NCBI GenBank assembly: GCA_002434045.1
Contig: DJJI01000003.1
Location: 997-64,996, forward strand
Direction of reading: 5' to 3'
Length of the DNA: 64,000 bases
Source of the DNA: Candidatus Saccharibacteria bacterium UBA6572
GTDB lineage: Bacteria > Patescibacteriota > Saccharimonadia > Saccharimonadales > Saccharimonadaceae
Within the stretch, counting starts at the first letter, position 1; every line of letters begins with the position of its first letter. The translations under genes and the position numbers were made by a program. Below the pieces are notes generated by a model that saw only the letters and a program-made list of their open reading frames with translations, was not told the origin of the DNA and ran no database searches. This document shows, in pieces, positions 1,898 to 12,880 of this stretch.

Positions 1898-3685
1898 GTG
1901 GCACTCCTCACAGACGAGAATCAGCAAAAGGTCGTCGACCTGCTCATCGGCGAGAATACGCTCACCGCTGATCAGGTCGAGGGCTATCGTATTAATGCCA
2001 AGAGCAAAGGCACGCCGCTCCTGACGGAGCTAATTCAATCTGGTGCGGTGACTGAAGAGGACATCACACGTGGTCTTGCCTCAGTTAGCAACATTCCATA
2101 CGTCAACCTGAATAACGTCACTATCACCCAGGACGTGCTCGCGTTGCTGCCAAAAGATGTCGCAGAGTGGTATATGGCTGTACCTATCGGCATGCTCAAA
2201 GAAGGTAACGGCAAGTCCCGGCTTGCCGTCGCGATGCTCGATGCGAATAACGTGCAGGCCGTCGACTTTCTTGCGAACAAAATCCAACAACCGCTCAAAG
2301 TCTACATGGCCTCAGAAAAAGGCGTTCAGCACGTTCTCGATCAGTACCATGCCGATCTTGCGCAAGGCGTGAGTGCGGCAATCACCTCTGCGCAGCAAGA
2401 GGAGCAGGCAAAAGCAGAAGTTGCGGCTGCGGCTCCCGAAATCAAACAAGACTCACCGATTTCACGGGCACTCAGTACGATTCTTGAGTACGCTGTTCGC
2501 TCCCGCGCGTCCGATATACACATCGAACCTACCGAGACAGATCTGTTGATTCGCTGTCGAATTGACGGTGTGCTGCGGGAAATCATGAAGCTTCCGAAGC
2601 AGATTGAACCGGCACTGATCTCACGTATCAAGATTCTCAGTAACCTCAAGATTGATGAACACCGCGTGCCACAAGACGGTCAGTTCACGGTGAGCGCAGC
2701 TGGTAAGGAGGTTGACCTACGTATCGCGATCAGCCCCGTCGTTTGGGGTGAACAGGTTGTCATACGTCTGCTCGATAAGTCAGGGACAAGCTTCAAGCTC
2801 GAGGAGATGGGTTACGCGGGACGCGCCCTACGAACGATTCGAAAAGGCATCAAAAAGCCGAATGGCATGATTCTTACTTCTGGCCCGACCGGTTCTGGTA
2901 AGTCAACCAGTCTCTATGCTCTGGTCCAAGAGATCAAGAACGAGAGCATCAACATCGTGACGCTTGAAGACCCGGTTGAGTACAAGATGAACGGGGTGAA
3001 TCAGATTCAGGTGAATGCCGAGGTCGGTTTGACGTTCGCATCAGGCCTGAGGTCTATCCTTCGACAAGACCCAAACGTCGTTCTGGTTGGTGAGATTCGC
3101 GACAAAGAGACGGCGAACTTGGCGGTCCAGGCGGCTCTCACAGGGCACTTGGTCTTCAGTACGCTTCACACGAACTCGGCGGCAGGTGTCTTGCCGCGCC
3201 TCCTCGATATGGGTATCGAGCCTTTCCTGTTAGCTAGCACCGTTAACACGGTTATCGGTCAGCGTCTTGTTCGACGCTTGGCAGATACGAAAGAATCAGT
3301 CAATTCAACCGAGCTTGAAACCAAGAGTATCCAAGAGACAATAGGCTCATTATTACCAGGTACGAAAGAGGATGTTGCCAAGGTTTCCGAGGACCTCGGA
3401 TACAAAGACCTTCCGCTTAGAACACAAAGCGCTTATACTTTAGCCAGAGGCAAGGATAGCCAACAAACACCAGGAGGCTTTAAAGGTAGGGCAGGGGTGT
3501 ACGAGGTTATGGATGTCAGTGAAGCGATCCAAGGACTTATCGTGAAGAAGGCGACAAGCGCCGACATTCAGCGACAAGCGATTGCCGAGGGAATGCTGAC
3601 GATGCGTCAAGATGGATATCTCAAGGCGCTGCAGGGCATAACAACCTTAGACGAAGTAAACCGCGTGGCGGCTAACATGGCATAA
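1898..3685 (+). CDS. pilB: Type IV pilus extension ATPase PilB (GspE family)
   Basis: Walker A GPTGSGKST, Walker B NVVLVGEIRD and His box LTGHLVFSTLHTN are present, with a long N-terminal GspE-N type region. The GTG start lies 7 nt after AGGAGG. Confidence 0.95.
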   Translation: MALLTDENQQKVVDLLIGENTLTADQVEGYRINAKSKGTPLLTELIQSGAVTEEDITRGLASVSNIPYVNLNNVTITQDVLALLPKDVAEWYMAVPIGMLKEGNGKSRLAVAMLDANNVQAVDFLANKIQQPLKVYMASEKGVQHVLDQYHADLAQGVSAAITSAQQEEQAKAEVAAAAPEIKQDSPISRALSTILEYAVRSRASDIHIEPTETDLLIRCRIDGVLREIMKLPKQIEPALISRIKILSNLKIDEHRVPQDGQFTVSAAGKEVDLRIAISPVVWGEQVVIRLLDKSGTSFKLEEMGYAGRALRTIRKGIKKPNGMILTSGPTGSGKSTSLYALVQEIKNESINIVTLEDPVEYKMNGVNQIQVNAEVGLTFASGLRSILRQDPNVVLVGEIRDKETANLAVQAALTGHLVFSTLHTNSAAGVLPRLLDMGIEPFLLASTVNTVIGQRLVRRLADTKESVNSTELETKSIQETIGSLLPGTKEDVAKVSEDLGYKDLPLRTQSAYTLARGKDSQQTPGGFKGRAGVYEVMDVSEAIQGLIVKKATSADIQRQAIAEGMLTMRQDGYLKALQGITTLDEVNRVAANMA

Positions 3686-3704: not shown

Positions 3705-4775
3705 ATGCAACCAACAGATTTACGAATAGAGACACTGCTAGAGGACGTTATACGAAAACGTGCGTCAGACCTGCACCTGCAGGTTGGGCTACCGCCGATG
3801 CTCAGGATCGATGGGTCTCTGGTACCAGTTCCAGGATTAGAGCCGCTCGATATCGAAACGGTTGAAAAACTGGTTTTCGCCATTCTCGACCAGGATCAAC
3901 AGCAGATTCTGATGAAGGATAAGGAGTTCGATTTCAGCTTTGCTTTCGGTGACCTCGGTCGTTTCCGTGTTAACGCGTTCCACGAGCGAGGCAATCTCGC
4001 CGCTGCGCTACGTCTCATTCCGAATGAGATCAAGACGATCGCTGAGCTTGGTATGCCAAACGTGGTCAATACGTTCTCTAGCTATCCACGTGGTCTCGTC
4101 TTGGTGACCGGACCGACAGGTTCCGGTAAATCGACGACACTGGCAGCACTCATTGATCAAATCAACACCGACAAAGCGCACCACATCATCACCATCGAGG
4201 ATCCAATCGAGTTTACGCACAAGTCCAAAAAGTCGGTCGTAGTGCAGCGAGAAGTCCACTACGATACGTATTCATTCAGCGCCGCACTTCGCTCAAGCCT
4301 GCGTCAGGACCCTGATGTCGTTCTGATTGGTGAGATGCGTGACCTCGAGACCATCTCGGCGGCCATTACGATCGCTGAGACCGGGCACCTCGTCTTTGCG
4401 ACGCTTCACACCAACTCAGCCGCGCAGTCGATCGATCGTATGATCGATGTCTTCCCACCGCACCAACAGCCGCAAATCCGTGCCCAGCTGGCAAATATCC
4501 TGATGGGTATCTGTTCACAACGCCTCGTACCGGCGATCGGTGGTGGTAGGATCGTTGCGGCCGAGATCCTGACCGCTACGCCTGCGGTACGTAACATTAT
4601 CCGTGAAGGCAAGACGCACCAGCTTGATGCGGTTATCCAGACCGGTGGTGACCAGGGTATGCAGACCATGGACAAGACACTCGTCGGACTCGTCCAGGCC
4701 GGAACTGTTACCTACGAAGAAGCGCGAAACTTTGCCGTAGATATCACTGAATTCGATAGGATGATGCGAGGCTAA
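3705..4775 (+). CDS. pilT: Twitching-motility retraction ATPase PilT
   Basis: ASDLHL, GPTGSGKSTT, DVVLIGEMRD and ETGHLVFATLHTN motifs are present, and the size (about 356 aa) fits PilT. The ORF track start is GTG 3690; ATG 3705 is an equally plausible start. Confidence 0.93.
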   Translation: MQPTDLRIETLLEDVIRKRASDLHLQVGLPPMLRIDGSLVPVPGLEPLDIETVEKLVFAILDQDQQQILMKDKEFDFSFAFGDLGRFRVNAFHERGNLAAALRLIPNEIKTIAELGMPNVVNTFSSYPRGLVLVTGPTGSGKSTTLAALIDQINTDKAHHIITIEDPIEFTHKSKKSVVVQREVHYDTYSFSAALRSSLRQDPDVVLIGEMRDLETISAAITIAETGHLVFATLHTNSAAQSIDRMIDVFPPHQQPQIRAQLANILMGICSQRLVPAIGGGRIVAAEILTATPAVRNIIREGKTHQLDAVIQTGGDQGMQTMDKTLVGLVQAGTVTYEEARNFAVDITEFDRMMRG

Positions 4776-4777
4776 CC

Positions 4778-5983
4778 ATGTTAACGTTTAGTTACACAGC
4801 TAGGGATAGGGCGAACAACAAGATTGTGAAATCCACCCTGCAGGCTGAATCGGAGGCGGAAGCAGCTAAACTGTTGATGGCTCGTGATCTCATCCCGCAC
4901 GAGATCAAGCCAGAGTCGGCAGGTGGCGGACTGAACTTCCTCAAAAACCATGTCGGTACCAAGGACAAGGTCGTCTTTACGAGGCAGCTTGCAACACTGA
5001 TCAATGCAGGCCTACCGCTTGCTAAGAGCTTGCACACAGTCCAGGAGCAGACCGAGAACAAACGCCTCAAGACGATTGCGCAAGAAGTGATAGCAAGCGT
5101 CGAAGGCGGTAGTTCGCTGGCAGACGCATTCGCGAAGCACAAAGAGTTCGATGAGCTTTTTATCGCCCTTGTGGCTGCAGGTGAGGTGTCTGGTACGCTC
5201 GACAAAGCTCTGGAGCGCATAGCTAACCAGCAGGAAAAGGACGCGGAGATCGCCGGCAAGATCAAGGGCGCTATGCTCTATCCGGCAATCGTGCTTGTCG
5301 TTATCATCGGTGTTATCATCTTTATGCTCACGACTGTCGTGCCGCAGATCGAAACTCTTTACGCGAGCCTTAAACAGTCACTACCGTTCTTGACCGCCAT
5401 GATGGTGGCGATGGCTGACCTCTTGACGAATTTCTGGTGGCTCATCCTCATCGTGCTCGGTATCGGTGTCTACTACCTCCGCCACTACGTTGAAACGACC
5501 TCTGGTAAGCGACAACTTGATCTTTTCAAGCTCAATGTGCCGCTTTTTGGCACTATGTTTCGAAAGCTCTACATGGCGCGATTCACGCGGACCGGCCAAA
5601 CGCTTCTTATGAGCGGTGTGCCGATGCTCGAGATGCTCCGTATCGCAGGTCGCTCCTCAGGCAACAGCCACGTCACAGACGCGATTCTTCGAAGCGCCGA
5701 TAAGGTCAAGACCGGTAAAGCACTTTCGGAGTCGATCAAGAACGAAGAGTATGTCCTCCCGCTTGTACCTCAGATGATTAGCATCGGTGAACAGTCGGGA
5801 ACGATCGACGACATGATGGGCAAGGCTGCGACATTCTATGAAAATGAGCTGGATGCTGCGATCCGTTCTATCTCAACGGCTATCGAACCGCTTCTCATGG
5901 TCGTGCTTGCGATAGTCGCCGGTGGTATGGTTGGTGCTATCTTGCTACCTATCTACCAGCTGGTCGGTAACACCTCTCTCTAG
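4778..5983 (+). CDS. pilC: Type IV pilus platform protein PilC (GspF family)
   Basis: 401 aa with a duplicated GspF-type domain and three TM segments, placed directly after pilB and pilT. Confidence 0.93.
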   Translation: MLTFSYTARDRANNKIVKSTLQAESEAEAAKLLMARDLIPHEIKPESAGGGLNFLKNHVGTKDKVVFTRQLATLINAGLPLAKSLHTVQEQTENKRLKTIAQEVIASVEGGSSLADAFAKHKEFDELFIALVAAGEVSGTLDKALERIANQQEKDAEIAGKIKGAMLYPAIVLVVIIGVIIFMLTTVVPQIETLYASLKQSLPFLTAMMVAMADLLTNFWWLILIVLGIGVYYLRHYVETTSGKRQLDLFKLNVPLFGTMFRKLYMARFTRTGQTLLMSGVPMLEMLRIAGRSSGNSHVTDAILRSADKVKTGKALSESIKNEEYVLPLVPQMISIGEQSGTIDDMMGKAATFYENELDAAIRSISTAIEPLLMVVLAIVAGGMVGAILLPIYQLVGNTSL

Positions 5984-6091: not shown

Positions 6092-6559
6092 GTGACTAAC
6101 AAACAAAAAGAAGGGTTCACAATCATCGAAGTTGTGCTGGTGCTTGCTATTGCCGGTCTGATCTTCTTGGTTGTTTTCCTGGCGCTTCCTGCGCTTCAGC
6201 GTAGCCAGCGTGACACACAACGTCGCAGCGATGTCGGTCGTCTTGCTACCTCGATCAGCAACTACCAGTCTAATAACCGTGGTGCAGTCCCAACAACGGC
6301 CGCGAACCTCACGACATTGTTGAATGACTATGTGAGGACTGCAGCTGCTGACCCATTCGCAGATCCAAATGGTACTGACTACACTTTGACACTTTCAACC
6401 GTTGGTGCTACCGGTGCTGGAACGGTCCCAGCGAACACCATGTACTACTACACCAACGCAACCTGTAACGGTGAAGCAGCCGTGGCATCAACCGGTGCGC
6501 GAAAAGTCGCCGTCAGGGTTGACCTAGAAGGTGGTGGTAGTTTCTGCCAGAACAACTAG
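6092..6559 (+). CDS. pilA: Major type IV pilin
   Basis: Class III signal peptide VTNKQKEG|FTIIEVVLVLAIAGLIF with G-1, F+1 and E+5. A C-terminal Cys pair is present (CNGEA...FCQNN). GGGGG precedes the GTG start, and a strong terminator follows the gene. Confidence 0.85.
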   Translation: MTNKQKEGFTIIEVVLVLAIAGLIFLVVFLALPALQRSQRDTQRRSDVGRLATSISNYQSNNRGAVPTTAANLTTLLNDYVRTAAADPFADPNGTDYTLTLSTVGATGAGTVPANTMYYYTNATCNGEAAVASTGARKVAVRVDLEGGGSFCQNN

Positions 6560-6621: not shown

Positions 6622-7449
6622 ATGGTGCTAATGTTCATCTACGAGGTATTCATCTGCGTGTTCTTGGCCATTCTGGGCGCAGCTATGGGTAGTTTCGCTG
6701 GCGCAGTCGTATGGCGGCTCAAACATAAGCGTGACATCGTTCGCGAGCGCTCAGAGTGTGAATATTGCCATCACAAGCTCGGTGTCCTCGATCTTATCCC
6801 AATCGTGAGTTGGGTTACTCTGGCTGGAAAATGTCGATATTGTCACAAACCGATAGGCAGGAGCGCGCTACTGCTTGAAGTGGCACTGGCAGTTTATTTC
6901 GTCATCTCATATCTTGCGTGGCCGTACGGACTCACGACGGGTCTTGAGTGGTTGGCGCTCGTGTTATGGCTCGTAATGGGAGTAGGACTCGCGATACTTT
7001 TCGTCTACGACCTGAGATGGTATTTGTTGCCGGACAAGGTCGTTTTCCCGTTGATCGCCGTATCGGGTGTGCTGTTTGTGCTACGGGCAGTCGCAGAAGG
7101 ATGGACGCCGGGCATTTTCATCGTTGAGCTTGCACTCGCGCTGCTTGCTGTCGCCGGCTTTTACGGCTTTATTTATACAGTTTCGAAGGGTGAATGGGTT
7201 GGATTTGGCGACGTCAAACTCGGCGTGGTCATCGGCTTGGCTCTTGGGTGGCAACTCGCGCTCCTGGCCGTTCTGATTGCGAACCTCGTCGGCGTCCTGG
7301 TCATCTTGCCCGGTCTGGCCTCTGGGAAGCTGCAACGTAGCTCACGGGTTCCATTCGGTCCGTTTCTTATCACTGGTCTTGTGCTATCAGGCCTTTTTGG
7401 TCAGCAGATACTGCTTTGGTACGCAAGCCTCATTACCCCTGGTTTCTAG
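6622..7449 (+). CDS. pilD: Prepilin peptidase / N-methyltransferase PilD (peptidase A24)
   Basis: Polytopic membrane protein with the N-terminal zinc motif CEYCHHK...CRYCHKP, and the catalytic Asp motifs in the contexts FGDVKLG and VPFGPFL. Confidence 0.9.
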   Translation: MVLMFIYEVFICVFLAILGAAMGSFAGAVVWRLKHKRDIVRERSECEYCHHKLGVLDLIPIVSWVTLAGKCRYCHKPIGRSALLLEVALAVYFVISYLAWPYGLTTGLEWLALVLWLVMGVGLAILFVYDLRWYLLPDKVVFPLIAVSGVLFVLRAVAEGWTPGIFIVELALALLAVAGFYGFIYTVSKGEWVGFGDVKLGVVIGLALGWQLALLAVLIANLVGVLVILPGLASGKLQRSSRVPFGPFLITGLVLSGLFGQQILLWYASLITPGF

Positions 7450-7478
7450 TTAAAACGGTTGTGCTATAATCAACTCAA

Positions 7479-8342
7479 ATGGTGCGACAGAGTGGGTTTA
7501 CGATCATCGAGGTGCTTTTATTCCTAGCGGTGAGTGGGCTACTCTTTATGATTGCAGCCAGTTCTCTGAACGCGACAATTCGTAACACTCGGCTTACTGA
7601 TGCGACTAATGGACTTGAGAACTTCGTCAGCCAACAGTATAGTGACGTCCGTTCTGGGGTATCGTTTCGCTCCGATGCTGCACAGACCTGTGGCGTTGGT
7701 GGTGCGGGCGCAGCAGAGCTGCCCGGTGCGTCAGATGACTGCATCGTCGTAGGCAGGCTCTTGGATTTCGTGGCGACCGGCGGGTCGGCAGATCCAAATG
7801 CTATCAATGTCTATTCAATCGTCGCAAACCGGTGCCCGCAGAACACCGTACAGCCAACCGAGAACGGTTGTCCGAATGCACCCGGTGTCTGCGCTAATAC
7901 CGACAGCAGCGACGCAGGCAAGATTGCCACGTATTGCCCAAGGGTTTTATGGGCCAACCAGCTGGATTCATACAATTTCCAGTGGGGCGTCTCGCTACCG
8001 CCAAACGTTGCCGGCGGAACGTTCCAAAATCCTCGAGTCGCACAGGTTGATAGTTCGCAACCTAGGATAAATCGCCTGGCTATCATCCATTCGCCAACAT
8101 CAGAGCGTATCTATACGTACGCATTCAATGATCCTGCCACTCCTACCAATACACAGGTAATCGATCGTACCAAGCTCGTGAGAAACACTGCTGATCGTAA
8201 CGTCATGATGTGTATCAGTGGCATGGAGTTCGGTGCTACGCTATCGCACTTCGTTTCGATTGAGGCTGGGCAGAGTTCGGATCTCGTGACGAGCGGCGCG
8301 GTCCGTCCTGTGGCTCAGATGCCTGGGGGGATGGCATGCTGA
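7479..8342 (+). CDS. Minor pilin (prepilin-type N-terminal cleavage/methylation domain)
   Basis: N-terminus MVRQSG|FTIIEVLLFLAVSGLLF with G-1 and E+5. 287 aa, within the pilus locus. Confidence 0.75.
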   Translation: MVRQSGFTIIEVLLFLAVSGLLFMIAASSLNATIRNTRLTDATNGLENFVSQQYSDVRSGVSFRSDAAQTCGVGGAGAAELPGASDDCIVVGRLLDFVATGGSADPNAINVYSIVANRCPQNTVQPTENGCPNAPGVCANTDSSDAGKIATYCPRVLWANQLDSYNFQWGVSLPPNVAGGTFQNPRVAQVDSSQPRINRLAIIHSPTSERIYTYAFNDPATPTNTQVIDRTKLVRNTADRNVMMCISGMEFGATLSHFVSIEAGQSSDLVTSGAVRPVAQMPGGMAC

Positions 8343-8926
8343 GAAAGAAGAGTGAACGAGGAGATACCCTTGTCGAGGTACTGCTTGCAACGGCAATACT
8401 GGCTTTTTTGGTGGCAGCCTGCGCGGTGATTATGAATAGTGGCCTGGCAAGTGTGCAGACCGCTCTCGAACGTACTCAAGTACAAGCTGCTATGCAAGGA
8501 CAGGCGTCGATTCTCAGGGCGCTTCGCGATGCTGCGCTAAAAGAGTTTTCCGAAGAAGCGAAGGTACAATGGAGCACTGTTATGAGTTACGCTACATCGA
8601 AAAACTCGACAGCCGAGACGGCCGTGTGTACTGTCGGAGGATACAGCGGTACGAGATTTCATTTCAGCGACAGCAGTACGACAGAGACGAGCTCTTGGCT
8701 GCGTCCACAGGCGCTCAGCGCCATCACCAACCCCGACCAAGCCGTGCCAAGCGGTAGTGAGATTTTGCCGACACCTGGTGACGGGCTGTGGATAGAGGCG
8801 TATCGTGGCATGGAAGGTGGCACGGTCCCGTACTATGACTTCTATATCAAGTCATGCTGGGAAAATATCGGTTCCGGTCCGAAACAGGAACTCAAAACGG
8901 TCGTGAGGTTATATGGCGATCTCTAG
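8336..8926 (+). CDS. Minor pilin (prepilin-type N-terminus)
   Basis: N-terminus MLRKKSERG|DTLVEVLLATAILAFLV with E+5. It overlaps both neighbouring genes, suggesting translational coupling. Confidence 0.7.
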   Translation: MLRKKSERGDTLVEVLLATAILAFLVAACAVIMNSGLASVQTALERTQVQAAMQGQASILRALRDAALKEFSEEAKVQWSTVMSYATSKNSTAETAVCTVGGYSGTRFHFSDSSTTETSSWLRPQALSAITNPDQAVPSGSEILPTPGDGLWIEAYRGMEGGTVPYYDFYIKSCWENIGSGPKQELKTVVRLYGDL

Positions 8927-9566
8927 TCGTACACGAAACCAGGGCTTCACACTCATCGAATTGATGCTTGCGATGGTATTTTTGAGCGCGATCATCTTGT
9001 TTGGTGTGCTTACGTTTGTCCAGGCGCTTGCCGTCTACAACAAGGGTATTTCAATCTCACAAATCAACGAAACTGGCCGAGCATTGACGAATGACCTCAA
9101 CCGATCGTCAAATAACGCCACATCCTTTATGGTCTCTGATCAAATCATGTGCATCGGCAAGACTGCCTACATGTGGAACACGGTTGCAACGCCAACTGGC
9201 CAGCAGTATCGCGTGAGTGGCCAACCGATAGGTATTGTGCGAACGGTCGACAGTATAGACGCGCGTAACACCTACTGCAACAGCGCTAGTCGGACGATTC
9301 AGCCAAACGACGTTACTAGTCTCATCGGCACGCAGGTTCGTGTCCTTGACGTTACGGTTGGGCAGCCAGATTCCGCAGCTGCCGAGGGGAGCTCTCTTGA
9401 GGCGCCGCTCCTGAAATTCGTTCTCACTATCGGTACGAGGAGTGAGGATGGGGCGGTTGACCCAGTCCAAAGTGGTACCTACTGGACGTGTCCTACCGGT
9501 ACATTCGGTACGTTTTGCGCGGTCGGCACCTACTCAACTACCATTTACGTGCAGAGTGGGTCATAA
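8913..9566 (+). CDS. Minor pilin (prepilin-type N-terminus)
   Basis: N-terminus ...RTRNQG|FTLIELMLAMVFLSAIILF. Confidence 0.75.
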   Translation: MAISSRTRNQGFTLIELMLAMVFLSAIILFGVLTFVQALAVYNKGISISQINETGRALTNDLNRSSNNATSFMVSDQIMCIGKTAYMWNTVATPTGQQYRVSGQPIGIVRTVDSIDARNTYCNSASRTIQPNDVTSLIGTQVRVLDVTVGQPDSAAAEGSSLEAPLLKFVLTIGTRSEDGAVDPVQSGTYWTCPTGTFGTFCAVGTYSTTIYVQSGS

Positions 9567-11104
9567 TGAAGGCAATCATGAGGGAAATGGGGAACAGAAA
9601 GACCGAGAACGGATTCGTTTCGATACTGACGGTCTTGATGTTCATGATCTTGACGACCATCGTGACCGTAAGTTTCGTGACCCTTACACTCGGAGAGCAG
9701 CGCCAGACACTTAACGATGACCTCGCAAAAGGCGCGTACGATGCTGCTCAGGCTGGGATAGAGGACGCGAAACGAGCTATTCGACATTGTCGCAACACTG
9801 GATGTGAAACGGCACTTTACAACCAATCATGTCCAGGTTTTTTTGAGACTAATCAGATGAAGACGGACCTTGGCCTGACGACCGTATCGCCGACGACCAA
9901 TGCCATCAGGGTTGGAGAGCCCTCTGCGAACCAGCGCTATACTTGCGTGACGGTGTCAAATGTCATCAACAAGTTCTGGGGTGAGCTTGATCCAAATTCT
10001 GCTGCCTCGCAGACCGTCTTTCTGCCGCTCAAGGGCGAAACTCCCTTTAACAGTGTGAAAATATCATGGTCGATGCGATCAGGCACTGCCGCGCTGCCAA
10101 GTGCAGCCCAGGTCCAAACAACTAATCCCTCGCTGCCGAACTGGAATGCGAACTGGCCTGCGGCCATGAGGACGATGATACTGAGTCACCCAACCGGTAA
10201 TGTTTCGGAGAGCTCCGTCACATCTCGATCAACCTTTTTCGTACCGGCTTCCGGAGGCGTGAACAACTATGGCCACGGTAGTACGAACGCCCGAATCGTC
10301 ACAAGGTGTAATACTGCCAACCAGGGTGGTGCGGAAAACGTCGATGGTGATTATCTATGTCAGATGACGATTACAGGGGTAGGTATAACAGGCCAAGATT
10401 GGTATCTTCAGCTCGCACCTTATTACCAAGCAGCCGCGTTCAAGGTGGAACTGTTCAATAACAGTACTCGGGTCAATATGGTGGACGCTGGTTATTTAGT
10501 AGACTCAACTGGCGCAGTTTCAGATGTCTATCGTCGGGTCCAAGTGATGCTCGGTCCTGATGATGTTGTTTCTCCGAGCAGCTCGATACAAAGTGGTGAA
10601 AAACTATGTAAGAACTTCAGAGTAACCGGCTTCTTTAATACTGTCTTGTCCCTTGGTGAAAACTGTGATCCGACCGTTTCGGTGACGCCGCCCGTGGGAG
10701 GTGGTGGCGGCGGCGGTGGTGGCAGTGCCCAGGCATTGCTCGGAGGTTATTGCTCAATTAATGTGTGTAACCCAGGTGATGACGATGATGGACCCGGGGG
10801 TGGTGGAGGCAACGGAAATGGTAACGGCAATGCGCCTCCAACCAACTATACGCAAAGAATCTTTAACGCGTCGAACAACCCCTCATCAGAAGTCGCAGGC
10901 TGTCGTTGGGCGATCAGTGACGGGACAGTGATAAATAACCAATACTGTAATTTCAATGACAGCTTTCTCCACACGTTCCCAACCACACCATACCCACCAA
11001 GAGTGAGATATGATGTTACCCTGACAGTTACACTGCGATCAGGTGAGCAGGCAACATATACGGGTGCGTTCTACGAGCCAAACTACACCAGCGCAGGCAA
11101 CTAG
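9566..11104 (+). CDS. PilX-like minor pilin with Gly-rich linkers and a C-terminal PKD-like domain
   Basis: ATG 9566 overlaps the upstream stop (TAATG). The N-terminus ...KTENGFVSILTVLMFMILTTIVTVSF is PilX-like, with no E+5. It has a poly-Gly tract (G9), a GGGGGNGNGNGN tract, and a C-terminal segment CRWAISDGTV...FLHTF...YDVTLTVTLRSG resembling the PKD signature. The ORF track extension to 9488 overlaps the previous gene and is not needed. Confidence 0.65.
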   Translation: MKAIMREMGNRKTENGFVSILTVLMFMILTTIVTVSFVTLTLGEQRQTLNDDLAKGAYDAAQAGIEDAKRAIRHCRNTGCETALYNQSCPGFFETNQMKTDLGLTTVSPTTNAIRVGEPSANQRYTCVTVSNVINKFWGELDPNSAASQTVFLPLKGETPFNSVKISWSMRSGTAALPSAAQVQTTNPSLPNWNANWPAAMRTMILSHPTGNVSESSVTSRSTFFVPASGGVNNYGHGSTNARIVTRCNTANQGGAENVDGDYLCQMTITGVGITGQDWYLQLAPYYQAAAFKVELFNNSTRVNMVDAGYLVDSTGAVSDVYRRVQVMLGPDDVVSPSSSIQSGEKLCKNFRVTGFFNTVLSLGENCDPTVSVTPPVGGGGGGGGGSAQALLGGYCSINVCNPGDDDDGPGGGGGNGNGNGNAPPTNYTQRIFNASNNPSSEVAGCRWAISDGTVINNQYCNFNDSFLHTFPTTPYPPRVRYDVTLTVTLRSGEQATYTGAFYEPNYTSAGN

Positions 11105-12021
11105 GCTGGTTTTTTAGTTCTATGGAACTTGCTGTGCACGTCGTGGAGATGCTGGTCAGTCACATGGGTGTAAATCTGGGTGGTCGCGATATTGCTATGA
11201 CCGAGCATACTCTGGACCGACCGGATGTCAGCACCGTTCATGAGCAGATCAGTCGCGAAACTGTGACGCAACGTATGTGGTGAGACATGCTTGGTGATGC
11301 CTGCCAGCTTTGCGTAGTGCGAGACGATGCGCTGGACGGAGCGAGGAGTGAGACGGAAGCTTTCCCCCTCGCTGTCTCCGTGTTTTGCGCCGCTGTAGCG
11401 GATAAAGAGTGGTTTGGCAGGGTCGCTACGAGTTTCGAGGTACGCGGCGAGGCACTCGGTAGCTTCGGGGCTGACAAAGACCGGCCGGTCCTTTTGTCCC
11501 TTACCACGCACCATGAACTCGCCGCGCTGCAGGTTGACGTGGTCGCGGTTCAGGTTACACAGCTCGCTGACGCGGAGCCCAGATGAGTAGAGCAGCTCCA
11601 GGATAGCTTTGTCACGTAGCCCCCCAGCCGATTGGCCGTCAATTGCCTCGAGGATACGCTCGGTCTCCTCCTGAGTTAGGAAACTAACCTGTTTGCGCTT
11701 TGTTTTCGGTAATTCCACCTTTTCCGGAGTCAGCGTCTCGATATCACGCTTCGAGCAGTAGCCAAGGAAGCTTCGAAGGGCGATCAGGTGGTAGCTCTGG
11801 GTAAGGGTACTGAGGCTATCGCCGGCTTCGTTTTCATAACGATTGAGCCATAGGCGCCATTTACGGACCATCTCGCTGGTAATCTTTTCGACTTCGATGT
11901 CGCCGGCAAATTCAACCAGCCGATCAAGGTAGAGGTGGTAGTTCTCGGCTGTGCGCTGTGAACGGCCGCGTTCAACCTCGACGTGCTCGATGAAGTCGAT
12001 GATGAGCTCTGAGAGGTACAT
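11101..12021 (-). CDS. xerC: Tyrosine recombinase, XerC/XerD family
   Basis: Catalytic contexts GLRVSEL, HTLRHSFAT and LGHSNIATTQIYTHV are present, with an N-terminal SAM-like core-binding domain. The start is taken at MYLSELIID (ATG 12021); the ORF track extends to 12171. Confidence 0.85.
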   Translation of the reverse strand: MYLSELIIDFIEHVEVERGRSQRTAENYHLYLDRLVEFAGDIEVEKITSEMVRKWRLWLNRYENEAGDSLSTLTQSYHLIALRSFLGYCSKRDIETLTPEKVELPKTKRKQVSFLTQEETERILEAIDGQSAGGLRDKAILELLYSSGLRVSELCNLNRDHVNLQRGEFMVRGKGQKDRPVFVSPEATECLAAYLETRSDPAKPLFIRYSGAKHGDSEGESFRLTPRSVQRIVSHYAKLAGITKHVSPHTLRHSFATDLLMNGADIRSVQSMLGHSNIATTQIYTHVTDQHLHDVHSKFHRTKKPA

Positions 12022-12085
12022 ACGCCTATCATACCGCTTACGTTCATATTTTGCGACACGGTGCCGTGCGGTACAATAAATTGCA

Positions 12086-12880
12086 ATGACTATCTTTGAA
12101 GCCATCGTCCTGGGTCTCGTCCAGGGTTTGACCGAGTTTATCCCGGTTTCGAGCTCAGGGCATCTACTCATCTTTCAGAATTTCTTGCTCGGAGAGGTTG
12201 ATCACCTATTTATTCAAGCGCTTGATTTCGGGACCTTAGCGGCGCTACTCATCTACTTCTGGCCAAAACTCAAAGACTTGTTTCTACAGGTAACGAAACA
12301 AGATGATTACCGTCTGGCACGTAATATTCTCATCACGAGTATTCCAGCGGGGCTTTTGGGGCTCTTACTGGCTGACTTCATCCAGACCAACCCGTTTATC
12401 CTCTCGCCGTACCTGACGGTAGCGATGCTGGCCAGTGTCGGTGTGCTGATGATACTATCCGATATGCTGCCTCAGAAAACTGCTCGTGAGAGCGGTAGTG
12501 ATCTTAGTGCACGCCGTTCATTGTTCATCGGTTTGGCACAGAGCCTCGCGCTGATACCGGGTGTATCTCGTTCTGGTTCAACGATACTGGCTAGCCGCGT
12601 TATGGGGCTCAACCCTAAGGCTGCCGCAGAATACAGCTTTATGGTTTCGATCCCGATCATGGTCGGTCTGGTCGGCAAGCTGCTCCTCAAGCCATCCGAC
12701 CGCCAATACCTCATCGACAACGCCGGAGTATTGTTAGTGGCTAACCTGACAGCCTTTGTCGCGGCGCTTCTCGCCATCCATTTCCTGCTGAGCTACTTGT
12801 CGAAACATGGCCTCAGTATATTTGGCTATTACCGCATAGCCCTTGCTACGGTCGTACTGTATCTACTTCTGTTACAATAG
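12086..12880 (+). CDS. uppP: Undecaprenyl-diphosphate phosphatase (BacA/UppP)
   Basis: Motifs EFIPVSSSGHL and PGVSRSGSTI in a polytopic membrane protein of 264 aa. Confidence 0.9.
   Translation: MTIFEAIVLGLVQGLTEFIPVSSSGHLLIFQNFLLGEVDHLFIQALDFGTLAALLIYFWPKLKDLFLQVTKQDDYRLARNILITSIPAGLLGLLLADFIQTNPFILSPYLTVAMLASVGVLMILSDMLPQKTARESGSDLSARRSLFIGLAQSLALIPGVSRSGSTILASRVMGLNPKAAAEYSFMVSIPIMVGLVGKLLLKPSDRQYLIDNAGVLLVANLTAFVAALLAIHFLLSYLSKHGLSIFGYYRIALATVVLYLLLLQ

Follow-up and report, generated by a model that had tools for sequence, protein, structure and literature searches.

A PilX1-type minor pilin from a Saccharibacterial pilus locus with a C-terminal linker-CX4C-linker-PKD module

Recognising a specific host bacterium and keeping hold of it is a necessity for Saccharibacteria and other CPR bacteria, and the best-supported devices for the task at present are their type IV pili. 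In TM7x, the minor pilins PilX1 and PilX2 are candidate tip adhesins (PMC11623550), and the PilX1 domain, when purified, binds to peptidoglycan and to host cells (bioRxiv 10.64898/2026.10.06.756255). The window analysed here, 64,000 nucleotides of contig DJJI01000003.1 from Candidatus Saccharibacteria bacterium UBA6572, contains a pilus locus whose last pilin gene continues past a large pilin body into low-complexity linkers and a further domain. What is this extension, and would it give the pilus an additional means of binding?

The pilus locus and its last pilin

The interval 9566-11104 on the plus strand is a genuine open reading frame of 512 residues plus stop. It is the final gene of an operon running pilB-pilT-pilC-pilA-pilD and then through three further minor pilins. 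Features of the locus, with the evidence for each, are as follows.

About 1898-3685, plus strand: pilB (Pfam on gene calls of contig L016, position transferred by offset)
About 3705-4775, plus strand: pilT (Pfam on gene calls of contig L016, position transferred by offset)
4778-5983, plus strand: pilC (Pfam families on gene calls of L016, a near-identical contig)
6092-6559, plus strand: major pilin, pilA (Pfam families, same gene calls)
6622-7449, plus strand: prepilin peptidase, pilD (Pfam families, same gene calls)
7479-8342, plus strand: Glu5-bearing minor pilin 1, GspH/I/J-like (N_methyl; weak GspJ/GspH/PilV matches across the set)
8336-8926, plus strand: Glu5-bearing minor pilin 2, GspH/I/J-like (same evidence)
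8913-9566, plus strand: Glu5-bearing minor pilin 3, GspH/I/J-like (same evidence)
9566-11104, plus strand: PilX1-type, Glu5-less minor pilin with a C-terminal linker-CX4C-linker-PKD module (open reading frame, homologues, synteny)
11101-12171, minus strand: convergent xerC/D-like gene, its 3' end sharing 4 nt with the stop of the PilX-like gene

The start ATG of the PilX-like gene shares TAATG with the stop of the minor pilin gene upstream, and the three Glu5 minor pilin genes and the PilX-like gene are translationally coupled (7479-11104). These four consecutive genes adjoin the machinery genes, the final one being both the largest and Glu5-less, and synteny comparison shows an identical minor pilin gene order in relatives. 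Within the protein, the following regions are distinguished.

9566-9613, plus strand: leader peptide, residues 1-16, with the conserved Gly16 as its last residue and a putative prepilin-peptidase site G/FVSIL (sequence, conservation)
9614-9799, plus strand: hydrophobic/amphipathic alpha-1 helix, residues 17-78 (AF2 pLDDT about 90)
9800-10570, plus strand: beta-rich globular body, residues 79-335 (AF2 strands 123-329, pLDDT 86-96; family-wide)
10571-10666, plus strand: family C-terminus, residues 336-367, with a D-region-like disulfide loop, Cys348 and Cys367 (conservation, alignment)
10667-10726, plus strand: linker 1, residues 368-387, DPTVSVTPPV-G9-S (pLDDT below 50)
10727-10774, plus strand: spacer with CX4C mini-loop, residues 388-403, AQALLGGYCSINVCNP, Cys396 and Cys401 (conservation)
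10775-10834, plus strand: linker 2, residues 404-423, G-D4-GP-G5-(NG)4-A (sequence)
10835-11080, plus strand: predicted PKD-fold Ig-like domain, residues 424-505 (AF2, Foldseek, profiles, purifying selection)
11081-11104, plus strand: unstructured C-terminal tail NYTSAGN and TAG stop, overlapping the 3' end of the xerC/D-like gene (sequence, AF2)

The N-terminus has a short leader followed by a hydrophobic helix, reading ...TENG and then FVSILTVLMFMILTTIVTVSFV (mature start FVSILTVLMF). Gly16, Val18 and Ser19 are each at least 90% conserved among 67 homologues, and PilD would be the enzyme that cleaves the prepilin. A first-pass annotation, made from the sequence alone, had called this a PilX-type N-terminus without Glu at +5, and the assignment holds. 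Mature position +5 is Leu; the other four pilin genes of the locus encode Glu5 and match the N_methyl motif (PF07963, TIGR02532), for which a search of the window protein found nothing. A missing Glu5 is typical of the GspK/PilX class. The match to PilX_N (PF14341) is weak, covering residues 22-66 at 21.6 bits (E=2.2e-4), below the gathering threshold of 25.5, and only 7 of 67 close family members match that model at E<=0.01. Comparison by hhalign nevertheless joins the family to a PilX_N-passing group (probability 100%, E=5e-73, 464 columns), a member of which, P0098, scores 38.8 bits, above threshold. In the alpha-1 region, amino acid identity with the L020 orthologue reaches 98%. NCBIfam yielded no family for the window protein; homologue clusters carry the JGI names 'Tfp pilus assembly protein PilX' and 'pseudopilin PulG'.

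Residues 1-367 constitute a minor pilin body of the PilX1 type, without Glu5, which 39 of 41 related genomes encode; its length is close to the 370 residues estimated in the first-pass annotation. Missing from that annotation was that the body itself corresponds to the published PilX1 class of jelly-roll adhesins, so that the PKD domain is a third module and not the sole candidate binding head. The body corresponds by position to the 'jelly-roll-like' domain of TM7x PilX1, a label taken from the TM7x papers; a Foldseek search of the PDB with the full-length model returned no significant match for it, neither GspK nor any other pilin. Residues 336-367 have low pLDDT in the AF2 model and a pN of only 0.066 against L020, and Cys348, Lys349 and Cys367 are at least 90% conserved among the 67 homologues. 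In the alignment most family members stop a few residues past the second Cys, and the closest relatives without the module terminate just past Cys367.

Synteny and family spread suggest that the window protein is the positional equivalent of TM7x PilX1, a component of T4P-1, the 'thick' retractile pilus of Nanosynbacter lyticus, which belongs to the same phylum. The two loci are of a common type, with pilM/N/O, pilB, pilT, pilC, pilA, pilD and four minor pilins. Each protein is the largest and last pilin of its locus, with a Glu5-less N-terminus and a beta-rich accessory body, and the proposed role of PilX1 as a host- and peptidoglycan-binding adhesin is partly demonstrated for TM7x. PilX1 as described has the jelly-roll-like domain only, whereas the window protein adds the linker-CX4C-linker-PKD region behind it.

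Fold, conservation and spread of the C-terminal module

Structure models and profile searches support a PKD-fold Ig-like beta-sandwich at the C-terminus. AF2 modelled the domain alone as a sandwich of 6-7 strands (pLDDT 85.5); in the full-length model the sandwich spans residues 427-503, the domain has pLDDT 84-93, and the segment 336-423 is disordered. The best Foldseek matches, 4jgu, 4l9d, 6aem, 2y72 and 4u6t, are all PKD domains (ColH PKD2b, PrtV PKD1, Epp PKD1 and ColG PKD), with probability 0.99-1.0, TM 0.5-0.6 and E-values that, for a small domain, are modest at 0.02-0.09. Against PDB sequences, the top matches of the family profile were PKD only, with E=1.9e-4 for ColH, 7.9e-4 for Epp, and values up to 1e-2. 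The clade profile, searched against 1.8 billion representatives, found multi-PKD proteins at E=1.4e-10 to 1e-8. Scores of the window protein against PKD_4 (PF18911), 13.7 bits at full length and 18.5 bits for the domain alone, are below the gathering threshold of 27; P0084, a member of the module family, passes both PKD_4 (32.7 bits) and PKD PF00801 (24.1 bits; gathering 23.5). A word-index protein search with residues 424-512 recovered only the protein's own cluster, within the sensitivity limits of a word index. The terminal segment of about 75 residues that had been picked out earlier by its PKD-like pattern is thus borne out in sequence, pattern and fold, the folded domain being slightly larger at 82 residues.

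The domain carries a conserved Cys446/Cys461 pair and the motif W-x-(I/F)-(S/G)-D-G-T. It has in common with the PKD domains of ColG/ColH, PrtV and Epp the fold and the signature W-x-F-G-D-G-T ... H-x-Y ... Y-x-V-x-L-x-V, yet identity to these PKDs of secreted enzymes (Clostridium ColG/ColH, Vibrio PrtV/Epp) is only 15-21%. Two features set the pilin-associated subfamily apart from them, a further conserved Cys pair (C-x-W ... A-C) and a first strand of the form N-x-S-x-N, and the window clade shows a W-A-I-S-D-G-T variant of the signature in place of the enzymes' W-D-F-G-D-G-T. The enzyme PKDs are internal tandem spacers, while the PKD of the window protein is single and C-terminal.

The linker region agrees closely with the first description. 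The G9 tract lies exactly at 10697-10723, and the Gly/Asn string DDDDGPGGGGGNGNGNGN is present at 10778-10831; the span 10790-10831 first assigned to it holds only GPGGGGGNGNGNGN, a trivial offset. Cys396 and Cys401 of the mini-loop are invariant within the clade, and a C-x4-6-C motif precedes the PKD domain in distant module-bearing homologues as well.

The C-terminal extension is conserved across three species-level clades, with 63-64% amino acid identity in the domain. Because synonymous sites are saturated, pN and pS are given in place of dN/dS. In the PKD domain pN is 0.20-0.25, similar to that of the body (0.22-0.29), and both are far below the saturated pS of about 0.75; the linkers diverge faster than either. 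The Cys pairs and the PKD signature residues are invariant. Retention in three clades, with non-synonymous divergence so far below synonymous, marks the extension as real and beyond chance.

Residues 425-512 found no match in any of 40 relatives; most family members lack the module, so pilus function does not depend on it. In other Saccharibacteria MAGs the cassette is present on syntenic PilX genes (L028, L030), and Glu5 minor pilins carry it too, whether at the same locus or at others (L031-L033). Homology within the module family reaches across deep Saccharibacterial lineages. In one homologue from the family of the window protein, the position of the PKD domain is taken by a bona fide VWA domain (E=3e-19). 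Related loci in genome contigs were found with an alignment of the canonical motif; a search of those contigs with the clade alignment found none. Only 2 of 27 branches are supported in the tree of PKD modules. In the tree of bodies, well-supported branches force at least five module gains or losses, a count from a sample chosen partly by the module trait, which therefore gives no frequency and leaves gains and losses unordered.

Proposed role and competing explanations

The reading we favour is that this is a tip-class core minor pilin whose grafted PKD cassette probably acts as an additional binding head. The protein would be the GspK/PilX-class core minor pilin of a retractile T4P-1-type pilus of a Saccharibacterium, priming filament assembly together with the three Glu5 minor pilins encoded upstream and finally capping the pilus tip. 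A cassette of roughly 145 residues appears to have been grafted on immediately after the family's C-terminal disulfide loop; in order, it comprises a flexible Pro/Gly linker, a small disulfide knot (CX4C), an acidic Gly/Asn linker and a disulfide-stabilised PKD-fold domain. The PKD domain would then lie farthest out on the pilus, held by a tether of about 56 residues whose contour length is up to about 20 nm. Nothing lies distal to it, so it cannot merely space another module. Most likely it would serve as an extra head that binds a polymer or protein on the surface of the host bacterium, and would so add to the jelly-roll body's reach, avidity or specificity. The earlier proposal of a modular pilin with a tethered Ig-like module is upheld in architecture and fold, and its tip location and adhesin role are the predicted part.

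Bacterial PKD domains are often passive stalks or spacers and, where they do bind, bind weakly and to polymers rather than to a specific receptor; those of collagenases and proteases such as ColG and ColH are mostly linkers or swelling modules. Structures of these two enzymes are among those matched here. The domain might instead be a structural accessory rather than a ligand-binding head: a protective cap, a steric stopper against retraction of the tip complex across the platform or cell wall, or a site at which a pilus-associated or secreted protein docks. The absence of the module from most orthologues, which places it outside the core adhesin, fits such a role, for which the CofB adapter for CofJ offers a precedent (PMC8179133). 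A terminal PKD on so long a disordered tether would, however, make a strange buttress or stopper. VWA, which is unambiguously an adhesion module, takes the same position in a homologue, and distribution over several pilin scaffolds is typical of exchangeable binding heads. On balance we consider the accessory role unlikely.

Two further accounts concern the extension itself. The first-pass annotation had suggested that the Gly/Asn tracts could change length by slippage, which would make them contingency loci through which the tip module rapidly varies in linker length or phase. Strains do differ in tract length, as that suggestion implied: the hexanucleotide GGTAAC at 10820-10825 occurs once here and twice in a sister haplotype, among contigs at least 97% identical, and its copy number combines with two linked amino-acid SNPs in all four ways. 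It is, however, the only tract to vary, by a single unit that is always in frame. The G9 tract is invariant in all strain contigs read, codon usage splits the Gly/Asn tracts into repeats of at most three copies, and TRF found no tandem repeat at the DNA level in the tracts. Recurrent slippage was rejected as the source of the four-gamete pattern, since over the entire gene the strain contigs form mosaics of two haplotypes, and recombination or chimeric metagenome assembly is then enough to account for the four combinations. What is left of the suggestion is one in-frame polymorphism, and a contingency locus is improbable. Least credible, to the point that we give it hardly any weight, is the view that the extension has no function and is a read-through appendage, decaying or neutral. 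Most orthologues do lack the extension, another Saccharibacterial genome has an in-frame TGA between body and module, and one contig has an 18-nt deletion that removes the DGT motif. Yet three species-level clades keep the extension with pN far below pS, as in the pilin body; the fold is confidently predicted; the Cys pairs and signature residues do not change; and the module is homologous across deep lineages.

Related pilins and significance

Among the closest parallels are modular pilins, which display grafted modules at pilus tips (PMC8179133). The window protein has the same plan of an N-terminal pilin, a linker and a C-terminal domain that is not pilus-specific. PilB (pilin plus vWA) and PilC (pilin plus lectin) of Streptococcus sanguinis likewise carry a module grafted C-terminally on a pilin, probably at the tip (PMC8179133). 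They differ in that the carrier here is of the Glu5-less PilX/GspK class with a large body, making the protein trimodular, and in that the linker is long and disordered with a CX4C knot where theirs is a short loop. The module here is a PKD domain, a term with no occurrence in the main text of PMC8179133, whose operational definition of a modular pilin requires IPR012902; the Glu5-less window protein is without it.

GspK caps the tip complex of its system (PMC7248040; Korotkov and Hol 2008 cited therein). Like GspK, PilX and PilK, the window protein is the Glu5-less product and largest subunit of the last gene in a four-gene minor pilin set, and it would be expected to sit atop I-J-like subunits. 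No sequence or fold match to GspK was detected, and the extra domain of GspK is an alpha-domain inserted in the pilin fold, whereas that of the window protein is a tethered C-terminal module. The type IVb pilins CofB and TcpB resemble it in having a pilin module, a flexible linker and beta-sandwich domains, and they initiate assembly from the tip (PMC8179133), as predicted for the window protein; they are trimeric proteins of Proteobacteria, with no sequence relationship to the window protein found.

PilX1/PilX2 adhesins and modular pilins are already published. The protein adds a new variation to the modular pilin theme without amounting to a new kind of machine. It presents the PilX1-class tip pilin as a modular scaffold in environmental lineages from bioreactor sludge, in which a phylum-restricted PKD cassette, or in one homologue a vWA domain, is added after a conserved body, with the cassette also carried by other minor pilins. 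A more speculative proposal, which we hold to be rather doubtful, is that linker-CX4C-linker-PKD is a Saccharibacteria-specific, exchangeable host-recognition cassette that has moved repeatedly among PilX-type, Glu5-type and small TM-anchored proteins near pilus loci. If so, its presence and sequence would help to set which host bacteria an episymbiont grips, the C-terminus of the tip pilin would be a general dock for swappable heads (PKD, vWA, Cys-rich domains), and the exchange of heads would be analogous to the swapping of receptor-binding proteins in phages. Should the cassette bind the host surface, differences in host range would be readable in genomes from its patchy distribution, and its compact, soluble form of about 90 residues could serve as a probe for the host receptors of uncultivated episymbionts.

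The PilX1-type carrier pilin and its locus

The gene at 9566-11104 (plus strand) is a single ORF of 512 codons. The stop codon of the gene before it runs into its ATG (TAATG), and its TAG has a 4-base overlap with the end of a convergent recombinase gene. Gene calls on a near-identical contig place pilB (MshEN+T2SSE) and pilT just upstream of the following features.

4778-5983, plus strand: pilC, upstream of the pilX-like gene
6092-6559, plus strand: major pilin, 155 aa, upstream of the pilX-like gene
6622-7449, plus strand: prepilin peptidase pilD, upstream of the pilX-like gene
7479-8342, 8336-8926 and 8913-9566, plus strand: three minor pilins, upstream of the pilX-like gene
11101-12171, minus strand: xerC/D-type tyrosine recombinase, convergent on the pilX-like gene

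The junction of pilX with xerC/D is kept in distant Saccharibacteria (contigs L028-L030 and L032).

All four upstream pilins, major and minor, have an N-methylation motif with Glu5. The N-terminus of the window protein reads ...TENG followed by FVSILTVLMF, and at least 90% of 67 homologues keep the Gly at the end of the putative leader. Position +5 is hydrophobic across the whole PilX-like family, and the window protein is therefore the sole pilin of the locus without Glu5. Pfam model PilX_N matches residues 22-66 below its gathering score (E=2.2e-4) and finds just 7 of the 67 family members. Profile-profile comparison joins the family to a second protein group over 464 columns (probability 100%, E=5e-73), several members of which exceed the PilX_N threshold. 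The family comprises 69 protein clusters with the JGI name 'Tfp pilus assembly protein PilX', L336_0665 of Ca. Saccharimonas aalborgensis among them. Of 41 related genomes, 39 have homologues of residues 1 to ~370 (23 of 24 within the same family, 15 of 16 elsewhere in the order). This body is a phylum-wide PilX1-type minor pilin, and from synteny and family spread we infer its orthology to PilX1 of TM7x (Nanosynbacter lyticus).

Most family members are 350-420 aa long and end a few residues past a conserved second Cys (C348...C367), which closes a D-region-like loop. An AlphaFold2 model built from 67 sequences has a long helix (17-78), a confident beta-rich body (123-329, pLDDT 86-96), a low-confidence stretch (336-423) and a confident beta-sandwich at the C-terminus (427-503). 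The canonical C-terminal segment of the family (SPSSSIQSGEKLCKNF.VTG...C; residues 336-367, window 10571-10666) ranks with the best-conserved stretches of the protein, with a pN of 0.066 against an orthologue from L020. Despite this conservation its pLDDT is below 50; the segment may fold solely within the minor-pilin complex.

The C-terminal PKD-fold domain and its tether

Beyond the second Cys, the window protein continues with linker 1 (PPV-G9), a conserved AxALxGxYCxxxxC segment, linker 2 (poly-Asp, Gly, Asn) and a domain of ~82 aa. The first-pass annotation had located the G9 tract correctly at 10697-10723; the second tract, D4-GP-G5-(NG)4, lies where it had been placed but spans 10778-10831, since a start at 10790 omits four Asp codons. 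By word-index search, just three species-level clades close to the window carry the extension: the cluster of the window protein itself (99% identity), P0003/P0075/P0076 (about 67-71%) and P0004 (64%). Closer-than-average relatives at 49-59% identity (such as P0005-P0008) terminate at the second Cys, without the extension.

Modeled alone from three sequences, the domain forms six to seven strands (pLDDT 85.5, pTM 0.75). Within the PDB, Foldseek matches it best to ColH PKD2b (4jgu), PrtV PKD1 (4l9d), Epp PKD1 (6aem), ColG PKD (2y72, 4aqo) and ColH PKD2a (4u6t), with probability 0.99-1.0 and TM 0.5-0.58; the domain is small, and E-values are just 0.02-0.09. The full-length model returns identical PKD matches. 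The sole Pfam domain match of the extension is PKD_4, sub-threshold, with E-values of 0.069 for the full protein, 0.0022 for the domain and 3.7e-4 for the best of three orthologues. When a three-sequence profile was run against 1.84 billion representative proteins, 48 were found. About half are 450-520-aa proteins with a single match at the C-terminal end, several of them PilX_N-positive, and the remainder are large and contain 5-12 canonical PKD repeats each (PKD_4 E=1e-122 to 1e-204). A 13-sequence profile of the module against PDB sequences places exclusively PKD chains at the top of the list (ColH 1.9e-4, Epp 7.9e-4, PrtV 1.3e-3), and P0084, a module-bearing relative, scores above Pfam gathering for both PKD models. 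In the window clade the signature diverges: it reads C-R-W-A-I-S-D-G-T, against C-x-W-(D/N)-(F/W)-G-D-G-T in most relatives. The extension at the C-terminus is a domain of PKD fold, carried on a tether of two parts.

Non-synonymous differences per site (pN) between the window and two sister clades are 0.20-0.25 for the PKD domain, 0.22-0.29 for the body and 0.25-0.50 for the linkers. The pN of the PKD domain is low against saturated synonymous sites (about 0.72-0.85), so the domain is under selection and kept as a functional unit of coding sequence. In the linkers, composition (Gly, Asp, Asn, Pro) and approximate length are preserved, whereas sequence is not conserved.

Other carriers and other modules

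Scanning a canonical-motif alignment against one genome per species recovers generic PKD proteins from many phyla; Saccharibacteria/Saccharimonadia MAGs supply the best six hits and 10 of 80 overall. L028 and L030 carry the cassette on the syntenic PilX-like gene (pilB-pilT-pilC-pilA-pilD-minor pilins-pilX-xerC/D). At L030:6750-9981 the minor pilins and the xerC/D-like gene flank a tandem pair of PilX-like paralogues (512 and 525 aa), each ending in a CX4C-PKD cassette. At L029:6765-8303 (Ca. Saccharibacteria MAG CAZOUW010000004.1), a single in-frame TGA splits the syntenic gene exactly between body and linker+PKD (...DMTPT*SPTTTPNPSGPG...), leaving an ORF of 362 aa for the body and one of 95 aa for the PKD alone (P0089). 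In L032 the carrier is a Glu5 minor pilin (317 aa) from the same locus, whose PilX-like gene lacks the cassette, and in L031 and L033 the cassette sits on orphan Glu5 pilins. Three further Saccharibacteria MAGs (L058, L074, L105; about 7250-8330 in each) have it on ~350-aa proteins anchored by an N-terminal TM helix, with the prepilin motif absent, several kb upstream of pilN/pilO/pilB. Well-supported branches of the body tree require at least five cassette gains or losses, a count that gives no frequencies, as the sample was picked partly by cassette trait; the module tree is too weakly resolved for telling transfers from losses.

Other modules occur at the same attachment point. A 585-aa PilX-like homologue from G006, a genome of the same family (L002:817-2574, minus strand), continues after the body into a bona fide VWA domain (Pfam VWA, E=3e-19) that has a DxSxS MIDAS motif. 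Its architecture matches that of S. sanguinis PilB, here on a PilX-type carrier. A 756-aa homologue from G027, of the same order (L023:994-3261, plus strand), ends in a Cys-rich extension of ~380 aa that matches no Pfam model and is another module at the attachment point of the cassette.

Function of the domain and variation of the linkers

The findings are read most economically as a modular pilin, as Raynaud et al. (PMC8179133) use the term, with an exchangeable head. Following GspK/PilX logic (PMC7248040), the carrier would be expected at the filament tip, with the exchangeable head on it. Because the PKD domain is terminal and follows ~56 disordered tether residues, an outward-facing interaction module is favoured over a spacer. 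The domain is probably a tip-displayed binding head, as the VWA at the same site in a relative, the shuffling of the cassette among pilins and the documented adhesin activity of TM7x PilX1 all suggest. The purified PilX1 domain of TM7x binds host cells and peptidoglycan (preprint 10.64898/2026.10.06.756255), and by analogy a cell-wall glycan would be the obvious candidate ligand. Absence of the module from most orthologues weakens the binding-head reading. PKD domains are frequently passive, which also counts against it; a structural or docking accessory seems rather unlikely.

That the linker tracts act as contingency loci is very improbable. The first-pass annotation had proposed that they could change length by slippage, and length does vary in part: among six variants of the protein, at least 99% identical and present in public assemblies (the names of several records and samples point to bioreactor sludge), the second linker has two alleles, (NG)4 and (NG)5, which differ at the DNA level by one tandem copy of GGTAAC. 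The G9 tract does not vary in length and shows one synonymous GGC/GGA change, and TRF found no tandem repeats over 10500-11104. Every length change keeps the reading frame and therefore does not switch the gene on or off. The indel and two linked amino-acid SNPs occur in all four combinations. Recurrent slippage was rejected as the source of this pattern, because the strain contigs are clear mosaics of two haplotypes (37 differing sites), for which recombination or chimeric assembly suffices.

Modular pilins, and Saccharibacterial PilX adhesins with accessory domains, are known already. In the literature searched, no related work joins a PKD domain with a type IV minor pilin, and the term PKD occurs in neither of the two TM7x papers. 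The linker-CX4C-linker-PKD cassette, a Saccharibacteria-restricted, pilin-associated PKD subfamily on a T4P-1 tip pilin, is apparently undescribed in the searchable literature.

In one strain contig, L110:3001-4527 (JGI contig Ga0074422_105294), 18 nt equivalent to window 10918-10935 are deleted in frame. The deletion takes out DGTVIN and with it the D-G-T conserved in the PKD signature; this is a genuine loss-of-function variant or else an artefact of assembly. Compared with the near-identical sister haplotype L016, ~540 bp (window 10715-11250) spanning linker 2, the PKD domain and the 3' end of the convergent xerC/D-like gene have zero SNPs, against an average of about 5-6 SNPs per 250 bp in the remaining locus. 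Recent recombination or a sweep may have produced this tract.
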